IMG/VR virus record: IMGVR_UViG_3300024231_000003
Span: 1-64,000 of that record
Strand: one strand, 5' to 3'
DNA: 64,000 nt
Source: a virus
Below the pieces are notes generated by a model. The model was not told the origin of the DNA. It did not search any database and was given only the letters and a program-made list of their open reading frames with translations. This document shows, one piece after another, positions 30,153-52,379 of the stretch. Numbering within the stretch: position 1 is the stretch's first letter; the number at the start of each line of letters is the position of its first letter. The position numbers and the translations under genes are program-made.

Positions 30153-30590
30153 ATGAAATATATAACCACATTAATAATTGCATGCTTAATTGCAACAAGT
30201 ACATTTGCTAAAGAGCCAGTAATGGTTGAATACGATTTTCCTATTACTAGAGTTATTGATGGAGACACAGTGGCATTTGAAGCAAACTTTTTGCCAGACC
30301 CATTCAAGAAAGAATTAAGTATTCGTGTGTATGGTGTTGACACTCCTGAAAAAAGCTGGAGAGCAGAATGTGATAAAGAAGCACAATGGGGTGCAGAAGC
30401 TAGTGCATTTACAAAAAACATGATTAACGAATCACGTAACATTAAAATTGCTATTTACAAATGGGACAAATACGGTGGACGTGTGTTAGGTGATATTATA
30501 CTTGATGGATTTAGTTTACGTCAACTATTAATTGAAAATGGCTATGCACGTGAATATTACGGAGACAAGAAAGAATCATGGTGTGACTAA
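30153..30590 (+). CDS. Secreted staphylococcal-nuclease (thermonuclease)-like protein
   Basis: Signal peptide; RVIDGDTV, IRVYGVDTPE, DKYGGRVLG, LIENGYA. Confidence 0.9.
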   Translation: MKYITTLIIACLIATSTFAKEPVMVEYDFPITRVIDGDTVAFEANFLPDPFKKELSIRVYGVDTPEKSWRAECDKEAQWGAEASAFTKNMINESRNIKIAIYKWDKYGGRVLGDIILDGFSLRQLLIENGYAREYYGDKKESWCD

Positions 30591-31785
30591 TCCCAAAGAT
30601 GAAAAAGGATTTTGTGTAATACCATTTACACAATCGTTCATACAAGATAATCGATCCAGGCTATGTTGTGAAAGTAAACAAACAGACGTATTTTATTTAA
30701 CAGAAGATGTAAATTTTTCTGATATATGGAATAATGATTTTCATCAGAGCATTAGAAAACAAATGTTATCAGGTTCTGGCGTATTGCCAACATGTTGTGA
30801 AATTTGCACAATGGATGAAGAATCTGGCGAAGAAAGTATGCGCCAATTTCAAAACAAGTATCAAAACGCAAGCATTGCTGATTTTAATAGTGTAATAGCT
30901 CCCCCTCCGATTAGTTACGATATTAGAGCAAATAATAAATGCAATCTTGAATGTGTAATGTGTGATGGACGTCTTAGTACAGCTATCCATAAAAGACTTA
31001 ACGACTATGGTTTAACTGATGATGATGATTTTCCTGTTACATTTGGTGAAGAGTGGAAACAACAAGCATATATTATTGACCATGTTAAAGAAAATAGTAG
31101 CAATATTACTAGTATGAGATTTGCTGGAGGTGAGCCTTTTTTAATGCCAGAAGTATTAGACATGCTTGAATATTTTGCCAACACTGGAGATAGCAAAAAT
31201 ATTGATTTACAAATTCTTACTAATGGTACTACAGTGAGAACTAAATGGTTTTCCAATATACTTACCAAATACAAAAAAGTAAGATTAAAAATTAGTATAG
31301 ACGGCATTGGTGAAACTGGAGAGTATGTAAGATACCCTTCTAAGTGGAGCGTAGTTGATAAAAATATACAACGTCTACTAAAAATATCAAAAGAAAACGA
31401 CAATATAAATGTTGATCTAGTGCCAGTAATTCATTTGCTTAATGCATTAGAAATGGATAAAGTTATAGAGTATGCAGCAATCAATGAAGTTGATATGGCA
31501 TTAACACCAGTATATACAGCAAGCAGTAATTATCATATAACAGCTGATTTACTTACTAATGATCTTAGAAAGATAGCACATGATAAAATGATGAATATGC
31601 TAGACAAATATCCAGATATGTCATTTAGTGTAGGTAAAGGATTTATAACAAATTTGTTAAACATGAAGCAACGAACAGACCCTCGACCAATACAGCAACT
31701 TAATCAAGTTGTAAAATATTGGGATAGTCATAGAGAAGTTAAGTTCCTTGATCGATACCCATATTTGGATTATCTAATTAAATAG
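30583..31785 (+). CDS. Radical SAM protein with N-terminal twitch-like Cys domain (start uncertain)
   Basis: FCVIPF...LCC...CEIC...E; CNLECVMC; FAGGEPF; LTNGT; SIDG. Confidence 0.9.
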   Translation: MTNPKDEKGFCVIPFTQSFIQDNRSRLCCESKQTDVFYLTEDVNFSDIWNNDFHQSIRKQMLSGSGVLPTCCEICTMDEESGEESMRQFQNKYQNASIADFNSVIAPPPISYDIRANNKCNLECVMCDGRLSTAIHKRLNDYGLTDDDDFPVTFGEEWKQQAYIIDHVKENSSNITSMRFAGGEPFLMPEVLDMLEYFANTGDSKNIDLQILTNGTTVRTKWFSNILTKYKKVRLKISIDGIGETGEYVRYPSKWSVVDKNIQRLLKISKENDNINVDLVPVIHLLNALEMDKVIEYAAINEVDMALTPVYTASSNYHITADLLTNDLRKIAHDKMMNMLDKYPDMSFSVGKGFITNLLNMKQRTDPRPIQQLNQVVKYWDSHREVKFLDRYPYLDYLIK

Positions 31786-31789
31786 TAAT

Positions 31790-32332
31790 ATGCGTATAGG
31801 ACTCACACAACGAGTATTTGAACACAACGGCCAATCATATGATGCAACAGATCAAGACTGGTATACATACTTTGACGACCACGAGATTATACCCATACCA
31901 AATTACCCACAGAATTTTATAAGTTTAGCAGACAGTTTAGACTTGCTAGTTATTACAGGAGGCAATGCTCCTGCTGAACGAGTTAAAACAGAACTACACC
32001 TAGTTCGTGCTATGATGGATAATAATAAACCTATATTGGGAGTTTGTCATGGAGCGTTTTTCTTAACTGAACTATTTGGTGGCAAGGTTGTTGAATGTAG
32101 TGGGCATCATAATACTATACACAATGTTACAATGGATAATGCTACAGTACAAGTAAACAGTTTTCATAATTTACAGATAAAAAATGCACCAGAAATGGCT
32201 AAAGTGTTAGCAGTAGACGAAGATGGTTTTTGCGAAAGTTGGACATATGGATCTATTGGTACAGTTGTTTGGCATCCTGAGCGTGGAAATATATCAATAC
32301 CAAATGACATAACACTATTGTTAAATTTATAA
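31790..32332 (+). CDS. Class I glutamine amidotransferase (PuuD/peptidase C26-like)
   Basis: ITGG, ILGVCHG nucleophile elbow, VNSFH, WHPER. Confidence 0.88.
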   Translation: MRIGLTQRVFEHNGQSYDATDQDWYTYFDDHEIIPIPNYPQNFISLADSLDLLVITGGNAPAERVKTELHLVRAMMDNNKPILGVCHGAFFLTELFGGKVVECSGHHNTIHNVTMDNATVQVNSFHNLQIKNAPEMAKVLAVDEDGFCESWTYGSIGTVVWHPERGNISIPNDITLLLNL

Positions 32333-32340
32333 TTTAAAAG

Positions 32341-32434
32341 TATAAATATAGTTGTAGCACAGAGTTGTGCTATTCATCAAGTATGATTCACATGTTTATA
32401 GCAGAGTTGCTATATTATTTAAGGTGTGACTCAT
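32341..32434 (+). promoter_or_regulatory. Late promoter plus structured 5' leader with twin GAGT-loop hairpins
   Basis: TATAAATA, then GTAGCACA-GAGT-TGTGCTAT and TATAGCA-GAGT-TGCTATA, the second carried on an ATGATTCACAT/GTGTGACTCAT stem. Confidence 0.6.
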
Positions 32435-32512
32435 TTATTATAAAAATAAATGTTTTATTCAAATTGTCTACATAGTAGACAACATTACAAAGTTAAAATG
32501 GAGAATAATACA

Positions 32513-33217
32513 ATGGCTTTAACAGGTAAACAATTCGTAGAACAAGTAGCAGCAGATAACGCAGCACTATTCACAGCATCAAAAATGAACGTAAAAGCGT
32601 ATTTTGAGAGCAAAAACAACTCAACAGAAGAACTAGTTGAGCACTTCATCGGTCGTATGGTTAACGAACGTATGAACATGGTAGAGATCAGTAAGCAAGT
32701 AGCAGCAATGCCAGCAAATGCAGATCCAATGGAACTACAAAATCTATCAAAGCAAGCACACGATGAAGCAGTACACTTCCGTATGGTTAAAGAGTGCATC
32801 GAAAAAATCACAGGCGAAGAACTAGACGTAGACGCAGCAATCGCAGCAGAAGCAGCTAAGCCACAAGCTAAAGGTGCTGATCTTTTAGACAAGTACGAAG
32901 CATCAAATGATGAAGCAGCACTAGCAGTATACCAAATGGTTGCTGAAGGTCGTGCAGAAGCAGTATGGAACCAAATGGCTGACTCAATTGAAGATTCATT
33001 CATTGCTAAATCTTATGCAAAAATCGCAAAAGACGAAGGTTTCCACTCAACTATCGGCGCAATGAAACTAGAAACAATTGCAACAGATGCAGATACACAA
33101 GCACGTATCCTAGCAATCGTTGACGGAATGCGTAAAGACTTATTCAACGTATCATGTGAAAACACACTAGAAGCTGAAGGTTCAAAAGAACTAGTAGCTG
33201 AAGCATACGGTTGGTAA
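32513..33217 (+). CDS. Ferritin-like diiron four-helix-bundle protein
   Basis: E...DEAVH...E(GRA)...DEGFH diiron ligand pattern; GGAG RBS; strongly biased codons. Confidence 0.85.
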   Translation: MALTGKQFVEQVAADNAALFTASKMNVKAYFESKNNSTEELVEHFIGRMVNERMNMVEISKQVAAMPANADPMELQNLSKQAHDEAVHFRMVKECIEKITGEELDVDAAIAAEAAKPQAKGADLLDKYEASNDEAALAVYQMVAEGRAEAVWNQMADSIEDSFIAKSYAKIAKDEGFHSTIGAMKLETIATDADTQARILAIVDGMRKDLFNVSCENTLEAEGSKELVAEAYGW

Positions 33218-33244
33218 GTTATACTTAACAATTTTTGTTTAATT

Positions 33245-33270
33245 AAACCCAGTCTTTATGGCTGGGTTTT
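33245..33270. terminator. Bidirectional terminator between convergent genes
   Basis: AAACCCAGTC-TTTAT-GGCTGGGTTTT. Confidence 0.8.
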
Positions 33271-33274
33271 CTTA

Positions 33275-33661
33275 TTATAAGGCAGTAAGCATTGCCATAA
33301 TATCCAATACATCGCTAGGCTTTGCATAATATTCATCTTGTATCCATTCACGCTTTGGTGTAATATACTGACAGTCAAAACTATGATCTCCATTACCATT
33401 GCTAAATGCACAATAATTCCATACTCTACATATAACTGGTAAGTGAGTCATGCCTAATCGAGGTGCTAGGTATATTCTATGATTGCCAGTGTCTAGTCTA
33501 GCTTTTCTACTCCAAACACCTACACTTAATACAATAGGGTCTTGTACACCATTTTCCATGATGTCGCTCATTAATGCTAGATCATCAGTTGGACTGAAAT
33601 CTGGATTACGATATGGAGCCAACATTTGTATTGGCATTTGTTGTATTAAGGTGCTATCCAT
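33275..33661 (-). CDS. ParB/sulfiredoxin-like N-terminal domain protein
   Basis: DIMENGVQDPIVL...LDTGNHRI..A..LG...LPVI. Confidence 0.7.
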   Translation of the reverse strand: MDSTLIQQMPIQMLAPYRNPDFSPTDDLALMSDIMENGVQDPIVLSVGVWSRKARLDTGNHRIYLAPRLGMTHLPVICRVWNYCAFSNGNGDHSFDCQYITPKREWIQDEYYAKPSDVLDIMAMLTAL

Positions 33662-34221
33662 CTTTGCATAAAGCTCTTTCTTACATAACCACGTTGTTGC
33701 ACTCTGTGCCAGCTCTTTTCATTATTAAAGAAGATGCTGCAGTAATTAGGTCTTAATGGGAGTTCAATAACGTCAGTATCATAATCAGACATTATGATTG
33801 TTCCTCCATCAGCATATTCTTCTTCTTGTAAAAATATTTGCAATGTAACCATAAATTCACCTTTGTCACGATGTGGAGGTTGTAATTGATTACTAGGCAA
33901 GTCTAATTTATACGACTGTTTAGCCACGTATGGATGAAAGTCTTGTTCAAATTTGTTAAACACTGCTACAGCAAATTCATTGCTTTTTAATGGATCAGTC
34001 ATTATGATATCGTTATACTGGTGGTTACTCTTATTAGCTAAATTACACCAATTGCTTTCATCATCCATGTGATCAGACCAATCAATACTATCATATATAC
34101 GTTGTTGTTCAATCAACATATCTGGTGGCAAAAATTCTGGTATTACTATATGATTCCATGGATTATTGATAATCTCAGTATCATTTATTTTTTGTAATAT
34201 GTGTGTTAGAAAATCAGTCAT
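33646..34221 (-). CDS. 2OG-Fe(II) oxygenase
   Basis: PWNHIVIPEFLP, HRD, GGT, SWHRV...R. Confidence 0.8.
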   Translation of the reverse strand: MTDFLTHILQKINDTEIINNPWNHIVIPEFLPPDMLIEQQRIYDSIDWSDHMDDESNWCNLANKSNHQYNDIIMTDPLKSNEFAVAVFNKFEQDFHPYVAKQSYKLDLPSNQLQPPHRDKGEFMVTLQIFLQEEEYADGGTIIMSDYDTDVIELPLRPNYCSIFFNNEKSWHRVQQRGYVRKSFMQRWIAP

Positions 34222-34978
34222 TTATATCCTTTATTATAAAGTTGGTCCAGTTTTTATTTGTATCAGGTCCTGCATGTTCACCATCTCTGCCCTTATCAAC
34301 ATAATACTCTTCTTCAAGTGTAGGCCATGATTTTATAGGTATAGTTGTATCTATCCCTTGTGGTCTATCAAAACAATGTACTTCTACATTATGTAACTTC
34401 CATGTATTAATAATAGATTGCTGCATTAAATATGATTTAGTCATGTAGTTACTTTCATAGTATACATATCTTTCCCAAAATTCTATGATGTCATTACCAG
34501 ACCAGTGACCAAGTTGTTGTATCTTATCATCTTTATATATCAGATATCTTGAAGGACATGGGAACATAATTATAACTTTTTTTGGAATATAATTAGACTG
34601 TATTAGGGCATGTGTATTATGGTGTAAAGTATCAACACTTGCACCAGACACACCCATATTTATGGTAGTATTATTTGTGATCTGTTCATATATATTTGGA
34701 ATAGTATGCTTGTTATGCACGCCTTGACCAAATATATGACTGCATCCAAGAAATAGTACACATTCTTTCCAGTCAAATTCTTGTAATTCCTTTGTTCTAT
34801 ATCCGTGTGAATTAAGTCTATAATTCAGGTCCTGGGAATTAAAATATCTCCAATCAGTGCCTAGCTCTTTCTTTGTCTTAATCCAATTTGATTTGTGGTC
34901 ATCATGTAACCATTCGAGTGTAAGATTTGGAGTTTTTTTCTTATTTTCTAAATTTAAAATATCTATTTTATTAAACAT
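34214..34978 (-). CDS. SGNH-like hydrolase/acyltransferase
   Basis: LNSHGYR, FLGCSHIFGQG, NMGVSGAS, RDGEHAG. Confidence 0.7.
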   Translation of the reverse strand: MFNKIDILNLENKKKTPNLTLEWLHDDHKSNWIKTKKELGTDWRYFNSQDLNYRLNSHGYRTKELQEFDWKECVLFLGCSHIFGQGVHNKHTIPNIYEQITNNTTINMGVSGASVDTLHHNTHALIQSNYIPKKVIIMFPCPSRYLIYKDDKIQQLGHWSGNDIIEFWERYVYYESNYMTKSYLMQQSIINTWKLHNVEVHCFDRPQGIDTTIPIKSWPTLEEEYYVDKGRDGEHAGPDTNKNWTNFIIKDIND

Positions 34979-36077
34979 CAAAATGATCCTTCCAATTTAA
35001 TCCTCTGATATTATTCAGTGTTTCAAAATAGGACAACATCTTTTCTCTTAACTTCCCCCGTTCATCTTGGCTACTATTGAATTTGACTATTTTTGTCAAT
35101 TTTTTATTATTTAAATCTAGTATTGTTTGTATTATTTCAGGACTGGCTAAAAATGGTTGTAAGTGCTTTGGTTCATAAACACTCATGCCTGCCCAATGTA
35201 TATCCCGCTCATCACACCATTCTATTAATTTAGGTAGTGACTGCAAACTAGCAGCCTGGACACTAGTTTCAACATTAACTTTAATATTATCGTATGATAT
35301 CATTTTATCTACATTGCGTTCTAATTTGTCCCATTTGATAGGCCATCTTATAAAATCATTAGCTTTTCCATATCCATCTATACTAACATTTATTCGTACA
35401 TCTTCAAATTTAGATAGTACATCTTGTAGTTTTTTTCCAAAGCTGCCCCCGTTAGATGTGATTTGTATAATTGAATGGTTTTTATTTTCTTGTTGTGCTT
35501 CTAGTACAATTTCTAAAAAGTCACTTAACAATCCTCTAACAGTAGGTTCACCACCAGCAAATCTTATTTTACGTGCTTTAGATGCTTCTACTGCAATAGT
35601 TCTAAATTTAGCAGGATCGTCAAACCAATTAACTTCTGGAGAATGATGTTGTGGTCTAAATATTTTAAGTTGTGGATTTTTATTGTGTTCTTCTTCCATC
35701 AAACTACTATTGTAACTACCACACATAATACATCCAGCATTGCATATATTACCAAATTTAATCTCTGTGTCGAATAAACTAAACTCGCCTTCATTAGTAT
35801 ATCTCTGATCGCCGTTATATATCATTCCGTCAATATTGGCTTTTTCATCTAGGACACATTCATTGCATCCTTGGCCAAACCTATTGTTTTTCATATCATT
35901 CATTAGTTTTTTATAAAAATCACTATTTAGATAATCTTGTATTGTATTTTCAGATACTAGAACTTGATCAGGCTGCTCTTGCCAAGCACAACATGGACGA
36001 TAAACGCCTGTACTACTGATACTAATATGATTTACTGGCCATTTACACTTCATAAACATATTTATACTTGTTGACAT
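34971..36077 (-). CDS. Radical SAM protein with N-terminal twitch-like Cys domain
   Basis: CKWP...RPCC...CNEC; CNAGCIMC; FAGGEPT; SIDG; NDFIRWP. Confidence 0.9.
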   Translation of the reverse strand: MSTSINMFMKCKWPVNHISISSTGVYRPCCAWQEQPDQVLVSENTIQDYLNSDFYKKLMNDMKNNRFGQGCNECVLDEKANIDGMIYNGDQRYTNEGEFSLFDTEIKFGNICNAGCIMCGSYNSSLMEEEHNKNPQLKIFRPQHHSPEVNWFDDPAKFRTIAVEASKARKIRFAGGEPTVRGLLSDFLEIVLEAQQENKNHSIIQITSNGGSFGKKLQDVLSKFEDVRINVSIDGYGKANDFIRWPIKWDKLERNVDKMISYDNIKVNVETSVQAASLQSLPKLIEWCDERDIHWAGMSVYEPKHLQPFLASPEIIQTILDLNNKKLTKIVKFNSSQDERGKLREKMLSYFETLNNIRGLNWKDHFDV

Positions 36078-36099: not shown

Positions 36100-36105
36100 A
36101 TGTAC

Positions 36106-36284: not shown

Positions 36285-36302
36285 ATATATTAAATAAAAG
36301 TG

Positions 36303-36350: not shown

Positions 36351-36441
36351 GGACAGGTGGGTGAGTGGCTTAAACCAGGGGATTACTAATCCTCCGAACG
36401 TTCATAGCGTTCCGTGGGTTCGAATCCCACCCTGTCTGCCA
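36351..36441 (+). tRNA. tRNA-Ser with anticodon ACT
   Basis: GGACAGG/CCTGTCT acceptor, G73, long variable arm GAACG/CGTTC, anticodon stem GGGGA/TCCTC, loop TT-ACT-AA, CCA. Confidence 0.88.
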
Positions 36442-36447
36442 AAGTTT

Positions 36448-36522
36448 TGGAACGTAGCATAATGGTAATGCACCGCTTTTTGGTAGCGTAGAGTATAGGT
36501 TCGAGTCCTATCGTTCCAGCCA
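36448..36522 (+). tRNA. tRNA-Gln(TTG)
   Basis: U1-A72, G73, loop TTTTGGT, CCA. Confidence 0.92.
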
Positions 36523-36527
36523 AGTTT

Positions 36528-36602
36528 GGTCCCTTCGTCTATCGGTTAGGACGCCAGGTTTTCAACCTGGAAAGACGGGTTCGATTCCCGTAGGGACTAC
36601 CA
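36528..36602 (+). tRNA. tRNA-Glu(TTC)
   Basis: Cloverleaf, loop TTTTCAA, CCA. Confidence 0.94.
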
Positions 36603-36706: not shown

Positions 36707-37792
36707 ATGATAAAATTAGATACAGTACACGTTGAAATAACTAACAGATGTAATGCAATGTGTCCAGGATGCACTAGGCAAGATCCTGATACTGGAAAGT
36801 TACTCGATTTTTTTCATACAACTAATGAAGTTGATTGGTCATTATCTGACTTTAAAAATATACTTCCTCCTCATATTGTTAAAGATACAAACATATTTTT
36901 TGGAGTAACAGTTGATGAGCCATTAATGAATCCAAACTTTTTAGATATTGCAAAATATGTAATTGCGTCTGGAGGTAATATTGAACTTGATACTAATGCA
37001 GGTGCTGGAACAGAAAAAACATGGACTGAATTTGGTAGATTATCACGTGACAATCCTGGAAGAATAAGAGTTGGATTTTCAGTAGATGGATATGAAGATA
37101 CAAATCATATATATCGTGTTAATGTCAAGTGGAATACAGTTGTAAGAAATATGAAAGCATTTGCACAGAATTGTAAAGATGCAACTTGGGTATATCTAGC
37201 ATTTGATCATAATGAGCATGATATACCAAAGGCAGAAAAACTAGCAACAAAAATGGGTATCAAATTTAAAGTACGTGCAAATACTCGAAATATTAAATCT
37301 TGGGTATCAAATACTACTATTAAAAAAGATAAAAAGATAGTTAAAGAAACAAAAATAGTCAAAGTAGACTCTGATAGTAAATTTAAACATAGCGACTTTG
37401 AAAAGATAAAAAAATTAACAAGTCGTAAATCTGACGAATATACTAAAAGTGAACTTGACACCATATCTTGTTTATTAATAGATCAACAAGAAGTTATGAT
37501 TGATTGGTCAAAGAGAATGTGGCCATGTTGTTGGTGGGGAGATGCATATCTTTCAAAAAACAAAAGATGGATGAAAAACATTATTTCTCAATATGGAGAT
37601 GATTGGAATCGGGTAGATTTAACATCAATAGATAAAATACTAGATCATGAATATTATGCTAGTATATTAGGTGGTGAAGCTAGATATGATAATACTAGTA
37701 AATTCTACTGTGGTGATAGTTGCTTTAAGCACTGTGGTGATAAAGGCAAAAGAAATTACGAATACTTTGATAAAGATGGCAAATCAGTCTAG
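36707..37792 (+). CDS. Radical SAM protein with C-terminal SPASM/twitch-like cluster (paralog of 3134-4201)
   Basis: CNAMCPGC; shared TNHIYRVNV.WNTV.RNM.AF; WPCC...CFKHC; TAAATA-N5-ATG. Confidence 0.9.
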   Translation: MIKLDTVHVEITNRCNAMCPGCTRQDPDTGKLLDFFHTTNEVDWSLSDFKNILPPHIVKDTNIFFGVTVDEPLMNPNFLDIAKYVIASGGNIELDTNAGAGTEKTWTEFGRLSRDNPGRIRVGFSVDGYEDTNHIYRVNVKWNTVVRNMKAFAQNCKDATWVYLAFDHNEHDIPKAEKLATKMGIKFKVRANTRNIKSWVSNTTIKKDKKIVKETKIVKVDSDSKFKHSDFEKIKKLTSRKSDEYTKSELDTISCLLIDQQEVMIDWSKRMWPCCWWGDAYLSKNKRWMKNIISQYGDDWNRVDLTSIDKILDHEYYASILGGEARYDNTSKFYCGDSCFKHCGDKGKRNYEYFDKDGKSV

Positions 37793-42558: not shown

Positions 42559-43213
42559 ATGGGAAATGACTGTAGATCAAAGTAACTACGATTTTAACCC
42601 GTTTAGAGAAAGTGATCACGGAGCTGGTTTTCGAACAATAGGCAATATAGAGCCTACATGGAAACAAGAAATACCTATTGCAAATTCAAACCAGTATGAT
42701 TTTTATTGGCCATCGCCAGTATCGCCTGACGGCGATAGTTTTAATTACGACTACGAAGAACTGTTATGCAAAGACTGGGGTATTCCTTTAGACTATGTCG
42801 TATACAGACAATGGACAACTACAGAAGAAACTCCTATACTACATAGCATTGCAGAACAAATTGGTCTTGCTGATGCACAAACTAATGTACAGACACAACA
42901 CACAGGCATGATGCTACATTTACACATTGATAGTTTAACTGGCCTACGTAAAGAACGCACAGACCAAAGTAGTAGTAGATCCACAGACATTGAATGGGGA
43001 AGAGTCTTTGTAATGTTAGACGATTGGGCACCAGGACATATTATACAGTTTGGTAATACATATGTACCTCCTTGGAGAGCAGGAGATATTATATGGTTTG
43101 ATTGGGCAAATATTCCACATAGTACAGCAAATACTGGACCATGGCCTCGTAACATACTAAAAATTACAGGCAAAGTTACAGACAAATACACAGAGTTAAT
43201 TAATAATGGATGA
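42551..43213 (+). CDS. 2OG-Fe(II) oxygenase-like protein
   Basis: LHLHID...RVFVMLDDW.PG...WRAGD...PHSTANTG..PR. Confidence 0.75.
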   Translation: MNRWEMTVDQSNYDFNPFRESDHGAGFRTIGNIEPTWKQEIPIANSNQYDFYWPSPVSPDGDSFNYDYEELLCKDWGIPLDYVVYRQWTTTEETPILHSIAEQIGLADAQTNVQTQHTGMMLHLHIDSLTGLRKERTDQSSSRSTDIEWGRVFVMLDDWAPGHIIQFGNTYVPPWRAGDIIWFDWANIPHSTANTGPWPRNILKITGKVTDKYTELINNG

Positions 43214-45601: not shown

Positions 45602-45604
45602 CTA

Positions 45605-46495
45605 ATGGATAGCAAGTTTTTAACTGAGTTTCCTGGACTAGATACAAGTACACTAAAGTACATCAGAAGAACATTGGATAATGCGTTTTTTGAATTTTCT
45701 AGAAACTGGGGAGAGCAGATTGAAAACTTGCTATATCCTTTAGAATATATTCTAGAAGTATCAGAGGACTTCCTCGTAGATACTCCTTGGTTAGTAATAC
45801 TATTGTTATTAACCACTTTTTGTTATCTTACTACATCCAATAAAAGATTTACTTTTGTTTTCTCGAGCATTTTGTTTTTAATTGGATATTTTGGAATGTG
45901 GGAAGATGCAATGATTACACTTAGTATTGTTATTATTGGTGTTTCATTATGCGTTATCAGTGGAATACCAATAGGCATAGCAATGTCTTCAAGTAATAGA
46001 GTTAGATCTATAATGTTGCCTATATTAGATTTTGCACAAGCAGTACCAACATTTGTCTACTTAATTCCAATTATTATGTTATTAGGTATTGGTGATCTTC
46101 CTGGACTCATTGCTATATGTGTATATGCTGTTCCGCCTATAATTAGATTTACTGACTTGGGAATACGTGAAGTAGATACAGGATCAATCGAAGCTGCAGA
46201 ATCTCTTGGTATGAATAAATGGCAAGTTTTACGAAAAATAAAAATACCACTAGCATACACTAGTATATTTGCTGGGCTTAATCAAACAATTATGATGGCA
46301 TTGGGTATGGTAGTTATTGCAAGTATGATTGGATTACAAGGACTTGGTAGTAACGTACTAACTGCAATTAATCAACAAAGACTAACAATAGGTTTACTTA
46401 ATGGTATGGCTATTGTTAGTTTAGCAATAATATTAGATCGAATGACACAACAATGGGCTAAGAAATTACAAGCCTGGAAATATGTTGACAAGTAG
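45605..46495 (+). CDS. proW: Glycine betaine/proline-type ABC transporter permease
   Basis: GIPIGIAM, PILDFAQAVPTFVYLIP, PPIIRFTDLGIREV, EAA loop, GLNQTIMMALGMVVIASMIG. Confidence 0.92.
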   Translation: MDSKFLTEFPGLDTSTLKYIRRTLDNAFFEFSRNWGEQIENLLYPLEYILEVSEDFLVDTPWLVILLLLTTFCYLTTSNKRFTFVFSSILFLIGYFGMWEDAMITLSIVIIGVSLCVISGIPIGIAMSSSNRVRSIMLPILDFAQAVPTFVYLIPIIMLLGIGDLPGLIAICVYAVPPIIRFTDLGIREVDTGSIEAAESLGMNKWQVLRKIKIPLAYTSIFAGLNQTIMMALGMVVIASMIGLQGLGSNVLTAINQQRLTIGLLNGMAIVSLAIILDRMTQQWAKKLQAWKYVDK

Positions 46496-47821
46496 TTATT
46501 CGTATTCTATACAATCCTGTAACATACTGTTAACTTCTCTATACTTGTCGAATAACTCTTGTTCAGTTGCACCAGTTAAATCAAAGTTTACGTTGAATGC
46601 CTTGTTTTGTAAATTTTGCCATTTTGGAATAAAAGCTCCAACCTCTAATCCAACATTTTGCGCATTAAAGTATTTACTTACTTTGTCTAGGTTATGCAAC
46701 GCTTTAATCTTTCCAGGCTTTAATAAAGCACAGCCCCAGAGTAAATTATTTTTAATGACAAGAGGTTCTCCTTTAACAAAATTGGTAATAATGTTATTGT
46801 CATTAACACTGTCTAGGATATTAACAAATTGTCCAGGTCTTGGATTTAAGTCAATAGCAATAATTTTACCATCATCGCAGGTATGAAAGTCTGGGCCAGC
46901 AAAGAACATTTCTTTAACTTTTAAATGATCCACTAATGTTTGTAAGTATTCAATAGAAGCTTCTTCTATTTCTTTACCAACTTCACTAGCATTGGCAATC
47001 CATACACATCTATCTCTAACAATGTCACTAGATTCACTAATTGAGTGACTTGAAATAGGATCATCCTGTGGATCCATTACATCGCCATATTTAATTTTAC
47101 TATTCTTTACATAGAACTCAATATGTACTTTTCCGTTCTTAACGTATCCTATAGGGGAAACAGTAGGCATTGAACTCCAATGGTACTCTTGAAACATAAT
47201 TCTACAAGCCTTGTTGTTGAACTTCTTAAGGTATATTCCTTGTCCATTAAGTTCAAAAAACTTATTGTGTGATTCCTTGTCTTTTAGGTGTTTTAGGAAA
47301 TGATGCCTATTGTTCCAACGTCTGTATTCCACTGAAGGAGCACTATTGTCATCACCAGGAAAGAATACATTACTTCCTGTACCAATATCTGGTTTACTAA
47401 ACACTTGTTTATTTTTAAAGATACTTAGTTGACTATGGGTTCTAGGTGTTATACTTTTTGGTGTATACTTTTCTAAACCAATTGTTCTACAAAAGTCATC
47501 CATTAACTGTTTATTACTTAATATCTCAGCCGCAAAAGGTGTTAAGTTGTTAATGCCATAATAGCTCTCCAGTTGAGAAGCAACAGGCAATAAGTTTTCA
47601 CTTACACACAGTACTTTATCACAGTTGGGAATATCTTTTACAATTTCTGCTATATTGAATAACTTTGAAATTACAAGAGTATTAGCCATTTTTACATATT
47701 TTTTAGATTCATTAGGTTTATTATCAGTGATAAGGATAACATTATCATCTTTATATGCAGACAATAAACCTTCTGATTTATTTAGGCTTCTTTCGTGTGA
47801 TAGAATTACAATATTCATCAT
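46496..47821 (-). CDS. ATP-grasp ligase
   Basis: NKQLMDDFC..IGL..TPKS, SKPDIGTGSN, FQEY, IDLNPRPG; AAGGA RBS before ATG 47821; TTGCAA-17-TATAAT upstream. Confidence 0.8.
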   Translation of the reverse strand: MMNIVILSHERSLNKSEGLLSAYKDDNVILITDNKPNESKKYVKMANTLVISKLFNIAEIVKDIPNCDKVLCVSENLLPVASQLESYYGINNLTPFAAEILSNKQLMDDFCRTIGLEKYTPKSITPRTHSQLSIFKNKQVFSKPDIGTGSNVFFPGDDNSAPSVEYRRWNNRHHFLKHLKDKESHNKFFELNGQGIYLKKFNNKACRIMFQEYHWSSMPTVSPIGYVKNGKVHIEFYVKNSKIKYGDVMDPQDDPISSHSISESSDIVRDRCVWIANASEVGKEIEEASIEYLQTLVDHLKVKEMFFAGPDFHTCDDGKIIAIDLNPRPGQFVNILDSVNDNNIITNFVKGEPLVIKNNLLWGCALLKPGKIKALHNLDKVSKYFNAQNVGLEVGAFIPKWQNLQNKAFNVNFDLTGATEQELFDKYREVNSMLQDCIEYE

Positions 47822-48579
47822 AAGTATGCTATTTCCTTTAATATCTGGTTTATACACATTATACTATACTTCTCATTACTTTGCAAGACAATTGTTTGGT
47901 TATTCTTTTCAGAGAAATGTTCAGCAAAGCTATGTGTATTAGGCTTTAGTGTATCAAATTCGCTGTTTGACAAAATCTTAGATGTTGTGTTATACTTAGT
48001 TATAAGTATTTCTCTATTCTTATTTGGAATCATAAATCCGTGGTGTGTATTTGGTACTGTAGTACTTATGGGAGGCATCAAACAATGAGCCTCAAAATCA
48101 TTATAGTTGTCACACCAATTATCATTTTTAGCTAAGAATACAGTAGTATTTACATAGTCATTAGACATTAACCTTGGAGTAAGTGCAATAATACCAGGAT
48201 AAAAGCAATAATTCTTAACAAAATGATTACTATGATATAGCCCAAGATAACCACCTAAGCTACTACCTATATGTACAATCTTATCGTATTGTGGCATCGT
48301 AAAATCAAACATATCACTAAATGTACATTCATGCAAATCAATATAAGGTCCATGATCAATCCATCCTAGTGAATCAATACCAAATTTAGAAAAGTAATCA
48401 AGCAATCCTATATTATAACCTTTGGACAGAAACGTTTCAGCTAAACGTAGTTCATTACCGCCAATACCTCCACTGCCATGACTAATTAAAATAAGCACAT
48501 CAGGGCTCTTACAATTATGAGGAATAAATATACTTATGTTATCACGTATTACAGATTTTGAAATTAAAAGATTAGACAT
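47818..48579 (-). CDS. Alpha/beta hydrolase (dienelactone hydrolase-like)
   Basis: SHGSGG, GSSLGG nucleophile elbow, FYPG, D, HGF. Confidence 0.8.
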   Translation of the reverse strand: MSNLLISKSVIRDNISIFIPHNCKSPDVLILISHGSGGIGGNELRLAETFLSKGYNIGLLDYFSKFGIDSLGWIDHGPYIDLHECTFSDMFDFTMPQYDKIVHIGSSLGGYLGLYHSNHFVKNYCFYPGIIALTPRLMSNDYVNTTVFLAKNDNWCDNYNDFEAHCLMPPISTTVPNTHHGFMIPNKNREILITKYNTTSKILSNSEFDTLKPNTHSFAEHFSEKNNQTIVLQSNEKYSIMCINQILKEIAYL

Positions 48580-49078
48580 GGATAATCTCCCTGATGAACT
48601 TTATACATTTGCTGACACTTGTGCTGAACAAGGTATGCAAAATAATATAAGTGTTGCTGCAATGAAGATTGGCAAATGGGGAAATGAGGCATGGTGGTGT
48701 ACCTGGGCTGACGGCAAAATTATTAGCATTAGCGGATGTCACCAAATGGACCAATACGAAAAAGGTTGTTGGCGTCTCATGGTAAGAACAGCCACACTTT
48801 TGGAATACAGAGGCAGAGCACCTGGTAGCATACGTACTATTCGAACTGATTTCAATTGGGGTCATGTTTTGCCTTATCAAGTTAATTATGCAGTATTGCA
48901 AGGAGCAACAAAGGTAGTTTTTACTACTAATAGTGATTCTGACGGAGATAAAAATAGTTTGCGTACAAATAGAGTAGTGCGTAAAGTTCTAGAACCACAA
49001 GGGCTAGTAAAGCTTGATGCACAGGATGTTGAAATATTTTATACCCGTCAAAATGTGTGGGAAATTATAATTTCCTAA
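48536..49078 (+). CDS. GNAT-like acyltransferase
   Basis: DGKIISISG...RLMVRTATLLEYRG pattern; TAAATA-N5-ATG. Confidence 0.55.
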   Translation: MLSRITDFEIKRLDMDNLPDELYTFADTCAEQGMQNNISVAAMKIGKWGNEAWWCTWADGKIISISGCHQMDQYEKGCWRLMVRTATLLEYRGRAPGSIRTIRTDFNWGHVLPYQVNYAVLQGATKVVFTTNSDSDGDKNSLRTNRVVRKVLEPQGLVKLDAQDVEIFYTRQNVWEIIIS

Positions 49079-49641
49079 TCAATAATTTGTATTGGGTCAA
49101 TACTAATATTATTAATATTTATTTCTTTGGGTTGTTCTAATATCCAGTCAATATAACTGGCAGCTTGCTCCATAGGTAATACTGTTCTTCCAGGATTCTT
49201 ATGTGCTTTATTTTGCAGCGTACCAAAACTAATATGCGTTACTTTGGGTGCATTTTGCCAATTACCCATGATAGCAAGGCCATTGGACATTTCGTTTAGA
49301 GCTAATTTTTCATAGTGGTACAAGTTACCCTTACCACGCCTAACAGTATCAGTAGTAGAACCAACATTGATAATTCTTTTGTCAAAGCCACCTTCAGCTA
49401 ACCATTTATGCCATATAGTATGCAATAGCATAGATTGTTTAAAATAAAAGTTTGCATACATATTAATAAAAACGTCACAATCTTGTGATAACCGAGCTAC
49501 TTGTTTAATAGCACCATCATCATTAAAGTCGTATCCATTATCTCGACTAGCTGTTACTATTTCATGACCTCTAGCTTCCAACATAGGAACAAGATACCCA
49601 GTTAAGTCTTTGTCTCTATTACCTGTTATTAAAATTTTCAT
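49075..49641 (-). CDS. Short-chain dehydrogenase/reductase-like protein
   Basis: KILITG, DVFIN, RIINVGS, YHYEK (YxxxK); AAGGAG RBS. Confidence 0.8.
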   Translation of the reverse strand: MKILITGNRDKDLTGYLVPMLEARGHEIVTASRDNGYDFNDDGAIKQVARLSQDCDVFINMYANFYFKQSMLLHTIWHKWLAEGGFDKRIINVGSTTDTVRRGKGNLYHYEKLALNEMSNGLAIMGNWQNAPKVTHISFGTLQNKAHKNPGRTVLPMEQAASYIDWILEQPKEININNISIDPIQIID

Positions 49642-49700
49642 ATTATACTCCTTGTATATATTTATAATAAATAACATAGTACTTAATTAGAAAGAAAATC

Positions 49701-50468
49701 ATGCCAATTATTAAAGAAACAGTTTTAGAAGTAAAGCATTACACAGATAGATTATTCCATATTACAACTACCAGAGATCCTAGTATACGTTTTAGAGATG
49801 GTGAGTTTTTAATGATAGGAATTGAAGTAGATGGAAAGCCATTACTTAGAGCATATAGTGTAGCAAGTCCAAGCCATCAAGAGACTCTAGAGTTTTTTAG
49901 TATTAAAGTACCAGACGGTCCACTTACCAGTCGTTTACAACATATACAGGTAGGCGATGAATTTTTAGTGAATTCCAAAGCAGTTGGCACACTAGTAGCT
50001 GATAACTTAAAACCAGGACGTAACTTATATCTTATGGGCACAGGTACTGGAGTTGCACCATTTTTATCAGTAGCACGTGGATTCGAAGCATATGAAAATT
50101 ATGATCGTGTTATATTGATGTGGGGTACACGAGAAGTTGCAGAACTCCCGTTCATTGAATACTTTGATAATCTCAATGAAGATGAAACTTATGGTGAATT
50201 AACAGAAGGTAAGTTCTTGTTCTACCCAACATGTACTCGTGAGGAATTTAAAAATCAAGGACGAGTAACAACTGCAATGTATGAAGGTAAAGTACAACAA
50301 GTATTAGGTCTAGAGCCATTTGATGCAGAACATGATCGTGTAATGATATGTGGATCTCAGGAAATGAATATGGAATTACGCAAGTATTTTATAGATGATA
50401 TGGGTTGTACTGAAGGGAACGCAAATCATCGAGGAGAATTTGTGTTAGAGAAGGCATTTGTAGGATGA
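49701..50468 (+). CDS. fpr: Ferredoxin/flavodoxin-NADP+ reductase
   Basis: RAYSVAS, IKVPDGPLTSRLQ, TGTGVAPF, MICGS, EKAFV. Confidence 0.95.
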   Translation: MPIIKETVLEVKHYTDRLFHITTTRDPSIRFRDGEFLMIGIEVDGKPLLRAYSVASPSHQETLEFFSIKVPDGPLTSRLQHIQVGDEFLVNSKAVGTLVADNLKPGRNLYLMGTGTGVAPFLSVARGFEAYENYDRVILMWGTREVAELPFIEYFDNLNEDETYGELTEGKFLFYPTCTREEFKNQGRVTTAMYEGKVQQVLGLEPFDAEHDRVMICGSQEMNMELRKYFIDDMGCTEGNANHRGEFVLEKAFVG

Positions 50469-51232
50469 ACTATACTAAAGGTGTAAAGCAAGAAAAACAA
50501 AATATCATAGATAGGTTCTCTCCAGCAAAAATATTAGAAAATGTACTAACAGATGAACAAGTACATGAATTGCTTTTATTTCAATTCCAAAATGCTGACC
50601 GTATTAAGTGGACAGCAACTAGCAGTAATATACAGCCATCAATAAACATTGTAAAAATGTTAGAGAAATTTGATTGGCTAAAGGATATAATAGCTAAAGA
50701 GATAGGTGACTTTTGGGAAGGACAACATAGTGGTAATTACTTTATTACTACTCAGTTGCATGATGCTCATGCAGATCTATTAACTGAAAAAGAAACAGAC
50801 GAAGATTGGGCGCAAGGCTTTATACCATACAAAAGCGCAGTAATTCCAATAATTATTACTGCTAGAGCAAAAGCATATACTGCATTTTTTAATCAAAGAC
50901 ATATTGGACATAGTATAACACTGGATAGAGAGTTTGTCACATCGCAAGACGATAGTATGTACGAAATATCCAGAGACTATCCAGATTTTTATATGGGAGA
51001 TGGCAGTGTTAGTACATTTGCTGATATTGAAAAGCACCCTAAATATATATTCCCTCATATACACCCTGAAAATAACAGAGGACTATCAATTGAAAATGTA
51101 TTTGAATTTAAACCAGGAAACATAATGATATTTGATGCGTGTCAAATCCATGCAAGTTGCGTAACTACTGACCGTCCAAATTTCCATTGGTTAAAAAGCG
51201 GAATTAATATACAGTTTTATAAAAAGTTATAA
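50465..51232 (+). CDS. 2OG-Fe(II)/cupin-fold oxygenase-like protein
   Basis: HDAHAD...SAVIPI...FKPGNIMIFDACQIHAS...K. Confidence 0.65.
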   Translation: MNYTKGVKQEKQNIIDRFSPAKILENVLTDEQVHELLLFQFQNADRIKWTATSSNIQPSINIVKMLEKFDWLKDIIAKEIGDFWEGQHSGNYFITTQLHDAHADLLTEKETDEDWAQGFIPYKSAVIPIIITARAKAYTAFFNQRHIGHSITLDREFVTSQDDSMYEISRDYPDFYMGDGSVSTFADIEKHPKYIFPHIHPENNRGLSIENVFEFKPGNIMIFDACQIHASCVTTDRPNFHWLKSGINIQFYKKL

Positions 51233-51240
51233 ATATATAC

Positions 51241-51322
51241 ACATGATACGATAGGTCAGTGACCAGGAATAGCAAATGCCTGAGAGTGGAATTAGTCAGC
51301 GGAATACCTTATCATATCATGT
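51241..51322 (+). ncRNA. Candidate 82-nt structured late RNA or leader
   Basis: Starts at the expected +1 after TATAAATA (51228-51235); ACATGATACGATAGGT/ACCTTATCATATCATGT closing stem; three GGAAT motifs. Confidence 0.5.
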
Positions 51323-51342
51323 AAAAGAAAATAGGAGAACGG

Positions 51343-51618
51343 ATGGGTATAATTGGCCATAATGACGATGATCAAAATAATTTAAGTGATTCTGAACCTA
51401 AAGGTAAACTTATTATAGATATTACTGATATCTATGACAGAAGAACACGCAAGAAAAAAGAACTAGAATTTTACACCAAAGAGCTTGATAAAATGATGTT
51501 GAGATTATCACTAATACAGCACGAAATTGGTGTAACAGAAACTATTATTACTATGATAGAGAATGAACAAATAGTAGATTTGAGAGAATCAATCAAAGAG
51601 AAGAGAAATAAAGAATGA
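51343..51618 (+). CDS. Small coiled-coil hypothetical protein
   Basis: AGGAG RBS, 91 aa. Confidence 0.7.
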   Translation: MGIIGHNDDDQNNLSDSEPKGKLIIDITDIYDRRTRKKKELEFYTKELDKMMLRLSLIQHEIGVTETIITMIENEQIVDLRESIKEKRNKE

Positions 51619-52379
51619 ATACATTGTATCTTGTATGTAGTCGCAGTTGCATAAATCAAATGGAAATACCATACTTACTTAATAACAGTCCTGATTTGCA
51701 TGGTGAAAGCAAAGCTGGAGAACACTATGCAGGATACGAGCTTGATGGACAGCCTATTGATCATGAACCAGGAATACTTGGAAAAGTAAGAGTACATGAT
51801 GATTATTGGAACTTGTCAGAAGAGGACTTTCAATATTATAACTTTGATGTAAGAAATGAATTAAACATTACTACTGATATGTTAGATAATCTACTTAACA
51901 TTATTGAAGATAAAAGTATTGCAGTATTATTGCATGCACATAATTTAAACGATATATGGAAGTGGAGTAGAGACAAGCCAGTGATTGTAATTAACACAAA
52001 AATTGGTGATTGGGAAGGCAACATTGAAACATGGGCTCCTAGGGAATATAATGTTCTAATGGAAGATGATAGAAATGCTAATTATAGTGGTACTGATCAT
52101 GCGTGGCCAGGTTGTGAAGAGGTTGCCGCAGAATTTGTATCAAGAATGCATTTAGATAGCGAACTTGGTAGGGAACAAGCTGATAGATTAGTTACACAAT
52201 CACAATGGATGATAGCACCAGATATATACACACTATGGGATACAGTTGGTATTGCTCCACCTAGTAAAGAATGGATTGACGCATATTTGCAAGATTATAC
52301 TGAGCACCAGGAATATAATCACGATTTATTAGTTGAGCTTAGAATAGCATATGACAATCATACTGGTAGATATGATTAA
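51615..52379 (+). CDS. Hypothetical protein
   Basis: ATGA-coupled 254 aa ORF; no motif recognised with confidence. Confidence 0.7.
   Translation: MNTLYLVCSRSCINQMEIPYLLNNSPDLHGESKAGEHYAGYELDGQPIDHEPGILGKVRVHDDYWNLSEEDFQYYNFDVRNELNITTDMLDNLLNIIEDKSIAVLLHAHNLNDIWKWSRDKPVIVINTKIGDWEGNIETWAPREYNVLMEDDRNANYSGTDHAWPGCEEVAAEFVSRMHLDSELGREQADRLVTQSQWMIAPDIYTLWDTVGIAPPSKEWIDAYLQDYTEHQEYNHDLLVELRIAYDNHTGRYD

Follow-up and report, generated by a model that had tools for sequence, protein, structure and literature searches.

A mosaic gene region in a fragment of a large phage genome and the counterpart of its core in Bdellovibrionota

Gene content of the region

The linear IMG/VR virus record IMGVR_UViG_3300024231_000003 (87,708 bp) carries, between 30.5 and 52.4 kb, 26 tightly spaced genes on both strands (as determined by calling of open reading frames, ORFs), which an initial annotation, made from the letters of positions 1–64,000 of the record (hereinafter, the window), had described as a single biosynthetic or tailoring cluster of about 22 kb. 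The region is a mosaic, consisting of a core at ~36.7–49.1 kb and independent flank modules (Table 1; genes are denoted by their leftmost coordinates). The CheckV completeness of the record is 24%, which for 87,708 bp implies a genome of several hundred kb, well above 300 kb. The G+C content is 32–40% across the window, with no compositional break at the region. Upstream of the region, recombination proteins resembling UvsX and UvsY are encoded along with a primase, a DnaB-like helicase and other helicases, a class Ia ribonucleotide reductase and an array of nine tRNAs; downstream are a clamp-like gene and a run of FolE, phosphoribosyltransferase and sugar genes; that is, the region is placed amid replication and nucleotide genes and, in this fragment, has no adjoining structural genes. 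A nucleotide search of the 22-kb region against the INPHARED phages yielded zero matches. Ten proteins with no Pfam or PHROG family were examined using orthologue alignments, two structure predictions and the ESM Atlas; the PHROGs offered no family for them, except for two weak matches.

The initial proposal of four radical S-adenosylmethionine (SAM) enzymes (30532, 34971, 36707 and 43206) and one cobalamin (B12)-dependent radical SAM enzyme (37918) is borne out by family searches. The 37918 protein matches the Pfam families B12-binding (PF02310; 42.8 bits, cut-off 32.1) and Radical_SAM (PF04055; 41.6 bits), and the cysteines of its CxxxCxxC motif (C184, C188 and C191) do not vary among 11 sequences of the family. 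When compared with PDB, the family profile matches TokK (7kdx; 358 bits, E = 8.7e-106, profile positions 4–486 of 603) and CysS (9n1b; 271 bits, E = 2.3e-79). The best NCBIfam model is that of KedN5 (NF033712), at 189.5 bits versus a cut-off of 700, and 37918 is therefore a relative rather than a member of the KedN5 subfamily. Judging from these similarities, the protein is predicted to belong with the class B cobalamin-dependent radical SAM methylases of the TokK/CysS type. In INPHARED, tblastn detects the B12 enzyme in a single record, at 25% identity.

Among the remaining radical SAM proteins, a Pfam SPASM match precedes the Radical_SAM domain in 34971 (residues 11–74) and 43206 (residues 9–86). 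Altogether, nine radical SAM genes are found in the 88-kb record, with extra copies at 3.1, 80.4, 82.3 and 86.6 kb; 30532 has paralogues at 34971, 43206, 80365 and 82339, and 36707 at 3134 and 86614. Homologues of the N-terminal-twitch radical SAM enzymes are present in 41 INPHARED records (40 Vibrio phages and one Ralstonia phage), with ~21–24% identity among the matches listed, none of which carries an informative annotation. At two sites, 42551/43206 and 79652/80365, a gene for a cupin-type HxD..H protein is located directly 5′ of an N-terminal-twitch radical SAM gene, the two cupins being 38% and the paired radical SAM enzymes 24% identical; the same two families recur on the minus strand at 33646–36077, with 34214 in between. 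From sequence comparison, this arrangement looks like a duplicated two-gene cassette. Between two other N-terminal-twitch radical SAM genes, a 184-aa phosphorylase-family protein (PNP_UDP_1) is encoded at 81792–82346 of the record. Members of this family presumably include the methylthioadenosine/5′-deoxyadenosine nucleosidase; should the phage protein be such an enzyme, it would remove an inhibitory by-product of the radical SAM reaction.

Five HxD..H 2-oxoglutarate (2OG)-Fe(II)-type oxygenases had been proposed for the region. Of these, 40937 is supported by its predicted fold and the motif is kept in 40287, 42551 and 50465, whereas 33646 falls below the Pfam cut-off (Table 1) and the other four have no match in curated Pfam. 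The model of 40937 (pLDDT 91) is a double-stranded beta-helix with 232 PDB matches in Foldseek at E ≤ 1e-3; all those listed are 2OG oxygenases, headed by a nucleoside-antibiotic hydroxylase (7v4f; E = 5e-8) and including proline cis-4- and 3-hydroxylases and AspH. The H128, D130, H180 triad is invariant in this family, which has 1303 homologues in public metagenomes, the 120 listed being devoid of a Pfam family. Invariant residues are also found in the families of 40287 (H107, D109 and H167, in 14 sequences) and 42551 (H125, D127, H190 and R200), the latter with only weak PDB matches, to PhyH, AtsK and EctD. R200, ten residues past the distal histidine, is a candidate for binding the 2OG C5-carboxylate, and no equivalent is assignable in the other families. 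Profile–profile comparison of three cupin families gave no significant link (best pair A5 versus A6, E = 0.0019, probability 14%).

The protein encoded by 39758 had been described as a Cys-less peroxiredoxin, which holds for the peroxidatic cysteine, as none of the seven phage and bacterial sequences has Cys at the PGxF position, but not for the protein as a whole, given that C157, along with Y54, is invariant. With the peroxidatic Cys missing, it would be inappropriate to classify this family as a functional peroxiredoxin. The methyltransferase (41644) and the Fpr electron supply (49701) were recovered as annotated, the latter matching FNR/Fpr-type reductase families. For the ATP-grasp ligase (46496) and the GNAT (48536), the ESM Atlas neighbours agree with the initial calls, whereas the Pfam and PDB profile searches were empty: feature neighbours of 46496, which has no Pfam, NCBIfam or PDB sequence match, carry ATP-grasp_4 (score 0.96), and structure neighbours of 48536 are GNAT clusters (TM 0.58–0.69). 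More generally, when profiles for the ATP-grasp-like, 40287, GNAT-like and diiron families were compared with PDB, nothing or chance matches emerged. The putative alpha/beta hydrolase (47818) is supported through the Pfam DLH match of a bacterial homologue, and the putative short-chain dehydrogenase/reductase (SDR; 49075) through three PDB matches, all to SDRs, albeit weak ones (E = 0.05–0.8). The SGNH hydrolase (34214) and ParB/Srx-fold (33275) calls are tentative, with no more than weak matches for either protein (Table 1).

The proposed solute-uptake pair was likewise found, in the form of an OpuAC protein (44618) and a BPD_transp_1 permease (45605). The permease scores 234 bits with the ChoW and 222 bits with the ProW model, and the binding protein 32.7 and 32.6 bits with the ProX/ChoX equivalog models, all under the respective cut-offs; no ATPase gene adjoins the pair. 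The OpuAC protein is 36% identical to one from a Pelagibacteraceae single-cell genome, which is too weak a match for naming the host, and none of three Bdellovibrionota genomes was matched.

Table 1. Genes and other features at 30.5–52.4 kb of the record
Feature	Coordinates	Strand	Evidence
N-terminal-twitch radical SAM, flank module	30532..31785	+	NF033640 265.8 bits (cut-off 170)
Class I GATase / C26 gamma-glutamyl-hydrolase-type	31790..32332	+	Pfam Peptidase_C26 55.8 bits (cut-off 20.5)
Putative diiron-carboxylate helical-bundle enzyme, ferritin-like or heme-oxygenase-like	32450..33217	+	Ligand set, model
Small protein, weakly ParB-like	33275..33661	−	PHROG E 6.6e-4 and 9e-3 only
Putative 2OG-Fe(II) oxygenase	33646..34221	−	Pfam 2OG-FeII_Oxy_3 21.5 bits (cut-off 27)
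Unknown protein	34214..34981	−	Only DUF6473 E 0.0037; no PHROG match
N-terminal-twitch radical SAM	34971..36077	−	NF033640 225.1 bits (cut-off 170)
tRNA-Ser(ACT), tRNA-Gln, tRNA-Glu	36351..36602	+	ARAGORN; Rfam RF00005 50–65 bits
Radical SAM, C-terminal Cys-rich (SPASM-like), "family B"	36707..37792	+	Pfam Radical_SAM E 4e-6, 27.5 bits (cut-off 29.5)
Predicted cobalamin-dependent radical SAM methylase, TokK/CysS/KedN5-like, core	37918..39792	+	Pfam B12-binding and Radical_SAM
Peroxiredoxin-fold protein lacking peroxidatic Cys, core	39758..40345	+	Pfam Redoxin PF08534 51.8 bits (cut-off 26.6)
HxD..H cupin-type protein, core	40287..40937	+	Invariant triad; no family match
2OG/Fe(II)-oxygenase-fold protein, core	40937..41578	+	Model and Foldseek
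Class I SAM methyltransferase, core	41644..42558	+	Pfam Methyltransf_23
HxD..H..R cupin-type protein, phage core only	42551..43213	+	Invariant motif
N-terminal-twitch radical SAM, orthologue of bacterial cluster copy	43206..44468	+	NF033640 304.4 bits (cut-off 170)
Importer pair, OpuAC-type binding protein and ProW/ChoW-like permease (genes at 44618 and 45605)	44618..46495	+	Pfam OpuAC 139.2, BPD_transp_1 95.9 bits
Putative ATP-grasp-like ligase, core	46496..47857	−	Atlas neighbours
Alpha/beta hydrolase, dienelactone-hydrolase-like (putative), core	47818..48579	−	DLH match of bacterial homologue
GNAT-fold acyltransferase (predicted), core	48536..49078	+	Atlas structure neighbours
Short Rossmann protein, SDR-like (weak)	49075..49677	−	PDB E 0.05–0.8
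Ferredoxin/flavodoxin-NADP reductase, Fpr type	49701..50468	+	Pfam FAD_binding_6 and NAD_binding_1; NF008178 123.7 bits, under cut-off
HxD..H protein, accessory	50465..51232	+	H102, D104, H229 invariant in 3 sequences
Two proteins (91 and 254 aa) with no Pfam match	51343..52379	+	Orthologues in L005 and L018 only

Conservation of the core in viral and bacterial genomes

A scan of IMG/VR with the 41644 methyltransferase retrieved 16 related loci (71–90% identity), of which eight remained after removal of near-duplicates. Orthologues were counted with thresholds of ≥40% identity and ≥60% coverage in these eight loci, two of which are truncated by the end of their contig. The records of the relatives are fragments, 23–72% complete, five of which were searched whole. 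The methyltransferase is present in all eight loci (71–90% identity), and 37918 (65–73% identity), 39758, 40287, 40937, 42551 and 46496 are found in seven loci each. Together, these seven genes keep their order across 7–8 of the eight loci. The GNAT-like gene 48536 is present in four loci and the hydrolase gene 47818, 37–56% identical in the relatives, in two, or more if identities of 37–39% are allowed. No copy of 43206 with at least 40% identity was found among the eight phage loci. In most of the relatives, 40937 and 41644 are separated by a second, paralogous B12 radical SAM gene, which is missing from the 88 kb of this phage. A peptide-pattern scan of IMG/VR for 46496 found no relative, but tblastn does detect this gene in the loci fetched with the methyltransferase.

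The flanks behave differently. Only the two closest relatives, L005 and L018, are colinear with the window at 34971–52729, and in the other loci, no orthologue was identified for 30532, the GATase-diiron pair, 33275, 34214, 36707, the OpuAC pair, 49075, the Fpr gene, 51343 or 51615. An orthologue of 34971 (59% identity) is present in both L005 and L018, as is the importer pair; 33646 has an orthologue (43% identity) in L005, and 49075 is found in L005 only; 30532 has no orthologue with at least 40% identity in any of the eight loci. Copies of family B in the relatives are 27–32% identical to 36707 and placed variably, and radical SAM paralogues in general are shuffled, with numbers and kinds that differ between loci. 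The slot that separates the ATP-grasp gene from that of the 42551-type cupin, occupied by OpuAC and the ProW/ChoW-like permease in this phage, L005 and L018, is filled in other relatives with TctA and a 257-aa partner or with a TonB-dependent receptor. Thus, the initial annotation, which had named a lack of co-occurrence and synteny in relatives as the finding that would speak against a common cluster, is upheld for the central ~12 kb, where linkage is kept, but not for the flanks, which are unlinked. Because the centre is conserved and the flanks are not, the 22 kb represents several modules rather than one cluster.

The core families also occur in bacterial chromosomes. Searching 238 genomes of the class Bacteriovoracia with the methyltransferase, we found two matches, including one in G053, where the homologue is 53–55% identical to 41644. 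On a 2.9-Mb contig of this genome, a ~15-kb stretch (G053:C1, 369.7–384.7 kb) contains nine core families, namely, homologues of 46496 (26% identity), 40937 (56%), 40287 (two copies, 46% and 24%), 39758 (44–45%), 43206 (41%), 37918 (37%), 41644 (53%), 48536 (40%) and 47818 (~24–25%). Interleaved with these are genes of the Aconitase, Aconitase_C, HMGL-like/HCS_D2, Aminotran_1_2 and MmgE_PrpD families, that is, the large subunit of an aconitase-family enzyme (454 bits with hacA_fam, exceeding the cut-off), a LeuD-type small subunit, an enzyme resembling isopropylmalate synthase (IPMS) and homocitrate synthase (HCS), a HisC-like aminotransferase and a PrpD-family protein. All nine families recur in G514:C47, where the gene order differs (46496, 32%; 40937, 54%; 40287, 42%; 39758, 43%; 43206, 41%; 37918, 37%; 41644, 51%; 48536, 45%; 47818, 24–28% across both bacteria), together with an aminotransferase, a PrpD homologue, an AspH-type hydroxylase and additional radical SAM enzymes. 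Neither bacterial cluster encodes an importer; precursor enzymes are present instead, and these, in turn, are not carried by the phages, which have importers in the corresponding slot.

The 40937-family profile matched 25 of the 401 genomes sampled from the phylum Bdellovibrionota, including G514, a number that counts the family and not the cluster. The 40937-like genes of G520, G424 and G036 were rejected as clusters because other core genes are missing alongside them, and G486 was rejected because it contains a radical SAM array instead. In the latter locus (L200; G486:C8, 68000–87999), four N-terminal-twitch and two family-B-like radical SAM genes surround a 40937-like gene, and one member of the array is a 63% identical orthologue of 80365 of this phage, so that radical SAM arrays of the phage type also exist in Bdellovibrionota.

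These distributions bear on the view that the region has no common function and is a hypervariable accessory island of unrelated, separately selected genes. Such a view would account for the differences between the flanks of related loci, the shuffling of the radical SAM paralogues, the lack of linkage of the diiron pair and the Fpr gene to the core, and the promoter- and terminator-like sites that divide the stretch into many units; moreover, marine T4-like phages have been described as having variable islands with many radical SAM genes (PMC5332604; PMC7029224). However, the co-occurrence of nine families in two bacteria, in different orders, and of seven families in the phage relatives, down to 53–74% identity, would otherwise be hard to explain and argues for functional linkage, which renders the accessory-island view of the whole stretch improbable.

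Flank modules, regulatory signals and occurrence

The class I amidotransferase proposed for 31790 is confirmed as a GATase/Peptidase_C26 protein. The diiron ferritin-like enzyme predicted for 32450 retains its diiron ligands, although the fold is equally close to heme-oxygenase-like proteins. Six residues (E73, E106, H109, E166, E196 and H199), forming the classical E/ExxH/E/ExxH set, are invariant in 26 sequences, and the model (pLDDT 89) is a helical bundle with a VIA Z of 15.3 both to CADD (heme-oxygenase-like) and to an ADO-like ferritin-type protein. Model neighbours include the heme-oxygenase-like CADD, TenA, HrmI and UndA and the ferritin-like ADO-like protein, PaaC and R2; the best Foldseek match is weak (E = 4e-3), and the PDB profile search with the family found nothing. 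A terminator-like hairpin (33245–33269) follows the diiron gene.

In IMG/VR, 32450 has 247 relatives at 60–85% identity, whereas none was found in INPHARED. Among the best 80 of the 247 loci, in 78 of which the diiron ORF was called, a GATase homologue is present in 73, adjoining the diiron gene in most of the gene orders listed. Other partners are a 24–34% identical relative of the methyltransferase (58 loci), a 78998-like gene (57) and a 42551-like cupin (34), the typical order being methyltransferase (on the minus strand), diiron, GATase, two genes for ~220-aa proteins, 78998-like and cupin. In the present phage, this cassette is dispersed: the GATase and diiron genes are at 31.8–33.2 kb, and 78998 and the 42551 paralogue 79652 are at 79.0–80.4 kb, 46 kb away. 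Judging from these comparisons, the diiron-GATase pair appears to be a separate, very widespread viral cassette which is independent of the core. In L024 and L029–L036, the pair directly follows homologues (84–92% identity) of the UvsX-/UvsY-like genes of the window (482–2326); in this phage, it is missing from that position and is placed 30 kb away. The summed contig depth over 32584–33250, within the diiron gene, is 55, 18 and 8 in three RNA libraries, in which other protein-coding bins are mostly at ~0.2–4, and a DNA run is flat at ~9; these values are only a hint of high expression, given that contig depth cannot rank genes and that this gene is conserved among many phages.

The GATase is also the starting point for a glycan-related interpretation, under which a nucleotide sugar or a capsule or lipopolysaccharide (LPS) substituent of the host or virion would be modified. 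The best NCBIfam model for 31790 is a Campylobacter capsule enzyme, the gamma-glutamyl-CDP-amidate hydrolase (Cj1417 type), a Pelagibacteraceae locus (L119) unites a B12 radical SAM, an N-terminal-twitch radical SAM and a cytidylyltransferase-like gene, and LPS-type glycosyltransferases populate the variable islands of pelagimyophages (PMC7029224). Nevertheless, the score of 31790 is only 68 bits versus a cut-off of 250, the GATase is part of the separate diiron cassette, and no glycosyltransferase or sugar-nucleotide gene is present in the core or in the bacterial clusters; we therefore give sugar tailoring a low probability.

The late promoters, behind which many of the genes had been supposed to lie, are not enriched, with 10 occurrences of TATAAATA versus 13.5 expected; sigma-70-like sites, at 117 versus 102.7 ± 9.5 expected from shuffles, show no excess either. 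Several of the best promoter-like sites do fall in intergenic gaps, including a perfect TTGACA-17-TATAAT at 41586–41614, in the 65-nt gap before 41644, which would imply two or more plus-strand units within the core. The interleaved tRNA genes are genuine, comprising tRNA-Ser, -Gln and -Glu. The tRNA-Ser (36351–36441; ARAGORN, Rfam 50.4 bits) has the anticodon ACT, an A34 serine tRNA being unusual.

The presence of tRNA genes within the region is one of the observations compatible with hypermodification of nucleic acids, whereby an amino-acid-like side chain would be destined for the bases of phage DNA or tRNA. Others are a TGT-like gene, FolE, a phosphoribosyltransferase and sugar genes just downstream (54–61 kb) and a GmrSD-type endonuclease gene adjoining the G053 cluster. 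Yet neither the phage core nor either bacterial cluster encodes a base- or DNA-acting transferase, and among the related loci examined, the core and the deazaguanine genes move independently, so that this destination appears distinctly unlikely.

The DNA of the core is near complete in 13 seawater DNA runs of 2018 (share of sampled words 0.76–0.99), three of which may represent the source sample. Three metatranscriptome runs contain contigs at least 95% alike (most at least 99%) over 28, 27 and 16 of the 30 bins of 30583–50582, bins with no contig cover carrying no information; however, such assembled contigs do not show transcription, because RNA libraries can also hold DNA.

Further downstream, a co-directional run at 54108–60723 includes genes for a 501-aa protein with no Pfam match, a cytidylyltransferase-cupin fusion, an aldolase-like protein, a protein with a weak GT1 match, GTP cyclohydrolase I and a phosphoribosyltransferase. 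It is followed at 61383–63998 by an ORF, ending at 64082, for an 899-aa protein with a subtilase Peptidase_S8 domain (132 bits).

A putative small-molecule pathway and its relation to known systems

On balance, and with modest confidence, we favour the interpretation of the core as an uncharacterised pathway for a free small molecule, a modified amino or oxo acid. The kinship with small-molecule enzymes is suggested by the proximity of the B12 family to TokK and CysS and of the 40937 model to hydroxylases of nucleoside antibiotics and free proline. In such a pathway, the starting material would be an amino or oxo acid. The bacterial set might lengthen a 2-oxoacid by one carbon and then transaminate it, and the phage could obtain the starting acid from the host or import it through the OpuAC/ProW-like pair with a host ATPase. 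The 37918 enzyme would then C-methylate an unactivated carbon, possibly repeatedly, as TokK and CysS do; both are known to methylate sequentially. The cupins could carry out hydroxylation, oxidation or desaturation, the 41644 methyltransferase might cap a hydroxyl or amine by O- or N-methylation, and the ATP-grasp enzyme would form an amide, joining the product to a second amine or acid. Addition and removal of a protecting acyl group could fall to the GNAT and the hydrolase, a strategy known from several antimetabolite pathways. The end product would be a small molecule in free form, with effects on the infected cell or its neighbours. The flanks, comprising the diiron/GATase pair, closely spaced genes for cupin-type and N-terminal-twitch radical SAM proteins, the tRNAs and the Fpr-type reductase, stand outside this scheme as separate modules, though the reductase could supply electrons to the Fe-S and B12 enzymes.

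The modified amino-acid moiety envisaged initially fits the IPMS/homocitrate-synthase-like, LeuC/D-like, PrpD-like and HisC-like genes of the bacterial clusters. Conversely, the attachment of such a moiety to virion proteins, tRNA or DNA, suggested alongside, is not borne out, as no macromolecule-acting transferase is encoded in the phage or bacterial core. Alternatively, the enzymes could act on a ribosomal peptide or on a protein of the virion, tailoring it in a proteusin-, graspetide- or tail-fibre-decoration-like manner. Pointing in this direction are many weak NCBIfam matches of the N-terminal-twitch enzymes to PapB, YhhB and ScmE/F, maturases of peptides made by the ribosome and modified after translation (RiPPs), the AspH-family hydroxylases adjoining the core in L005 and G514, and, following the core in L006, a protein of 513 aa that weakly matches Mtd_N and HDPD. 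Nonetheless, gaps between the core genes are shorter than ~150 nt and thus leave no room for a precursor peptide, no small ORF is conserved between core genes (the sole short gene, 51343, is found in L005 and L018 alone), the bacterial clusters contain amino-acid/oxo-acid precursor genes, the solved structures closest to the B12 enzyme belong to TokK and CysS, which methylate small molecules, and, in this record, the core lies amid replication and nucleotide genes rather than next to structural genes. Peptide or protein modification consequently seems unlikely, if slightly less so than the glycan, nucleic-acid and accessory-island explanations.

Several observations weigh against a small-molecule pathway, or temper the confidence placed in it. 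Every chemical step of the scheme is deduced from family membership; for three of the four core cupins, the putative assignment derives solely from the HxD..H motif, and the ATP-grasp and GNAT predictions derive solely from language-model and structure neighbours. The whole-record counts among the five relatives (Fpr in one, the diiron/GATase pair in none of these B12-core relatives, and 50465 in three, every copy adjoining the core) make for weak absences because the records are fragments. The radical SAM cassettes of pelagimyophages have been placed in a "host recognition cluster" of tail-fibre genes (PMC7029224), which favours a role at the virion or at a surface. The 42551 gene, among the best conserved in the phages, is not found in either bacterial cluster. 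A scan of the genome contigs of 185,579 species with the B12 alignment (423 relatives, best 80) detected no locus with other core families, 73 of the 80 loci matching the B12 enzyme alone and seven adding radical SAM, permease or unrelated matches; the same scan supplied the Bacteriovoracia metagenome-assembled genome used as the search centre, and the methyltransferase was found in none of the four genomes reached from it. The bacterial evidence accordingly rests on two genomes. Finally, there is no dehydrogenase among the bacterial precursor genes, and these genes score under every equivalog cut-off, making even the class of the precursor uncertain.

A bolder extension of the small-molecule pathway, which we put forward as possible but doubtful, is that abundant giant marine phages and predatory Bdellovibrionota share a route to a methylated, hydroxylated, amino-acid-derived antimetabolite that poisons or reprograms the consumed cell, the phages having swapped the precursor genes for importers that vary between lineages (betaine-, tricarboxylate- and TonB/B12-type). 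If so, the secondary-metabolite pathway would be virus-encoded and widespread. Multi-step biosynthesis of small molecules is not commonly attributed to phages, and the core comprises about ten enzymes. A free metabolite as the product would represent a new class of virus-made compounds in the surface ocean and a new type of substrate for TokK-like sequential methylases. The chromosomal counterpart in bacteria indicates the missing precursor steps and provides a practical route to the chemistry that does not require the host of the phage, and the exchange of precursor genes for importers is a testable case of viral pathway slimming.

In a full-text literature search, neither the cluster nor the diiron/GATase cassette was found described, and the same is true of TokK-like and heme-oxygenase-like diiron enzymes of phages; within the literature searched, the characterization of the system as undescribed holds. 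The closest parallels for the B12 enzyme are TokK/ThnK, which build the carbapenem side chain, and CysS/KedN5, which build alkoxy groups, in both cases by adding methyls one after another. The 37918 family shares with these enzymes the B12-binding domain and the CxxxCxxC motif, along with strong profile scores to TokK and CysS. Methylases of this kind are accompanied in thienamycin-type clusters by 2OG oxygenases, a GNAT and hydrolases. The phage core differs from TokK-type clusters in that family searches detected no beta-lactam synthetase or carboxymethylproline synthase family in it, and in that the partners are a peroxiredoxin-fold protein, an N-terminal-twitch radical SAM and an ATP-grasp protein, in a phage setting.

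A second parallel is the logic of phosphinothricin-type pathways, in which extension by homocitrate-synthase- and aconitase-like enzymes is combined with transamination, N-acetyl protection, methylation by a B12 radical SAM enzyme and deacetylation. The bacterial clusters similarly unite IPMS/HCS-like and LeuC/D-like enzymes, an aminotransferase, a GNAT, a B12 radical SAM and a hydrolase, and models of the PhpK family match 37918 weakly (E = 5e-11), far under the cut-off. In contrast, neither phosphoenolpyruvate mutase nor any other phosphonate family was found in the family searches, and the comparison is an analogy of pathway logic rather than homology of clusters.

With respect to gene content and setting, the region resembles the islands of marine T4-like phages, with which it shares UvsX/UvsY-type replication genes, many radical SAM genes and cassette-wise gain and loss. 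A T4-like environmental genome contains 12 radical SAM genes (Nishimura 2017, PMC5332604), and radical SAM cassettes occur in the variable host recognition cluster of pelagimyophages (Zaragoza-Solas 2020, PMC7029224). However, the available portions of these two papers define no conserved gene set, bacterial counterpart or pathway, and the phages they describe have genomes of 132–183 kb, as opposed to the >300 kb implied here by CheckV. The importer pair resembles OpuA/ProU-type betaine importers in combining OpuAC with a ProW-type permease but differs from them in its sub-cut-off equivalog scores and the missing adjoining ATPase. Overall, set against these systems, the core is an uncharacterised, widespread phage-and-predator pathway assembled from known enzyme families.

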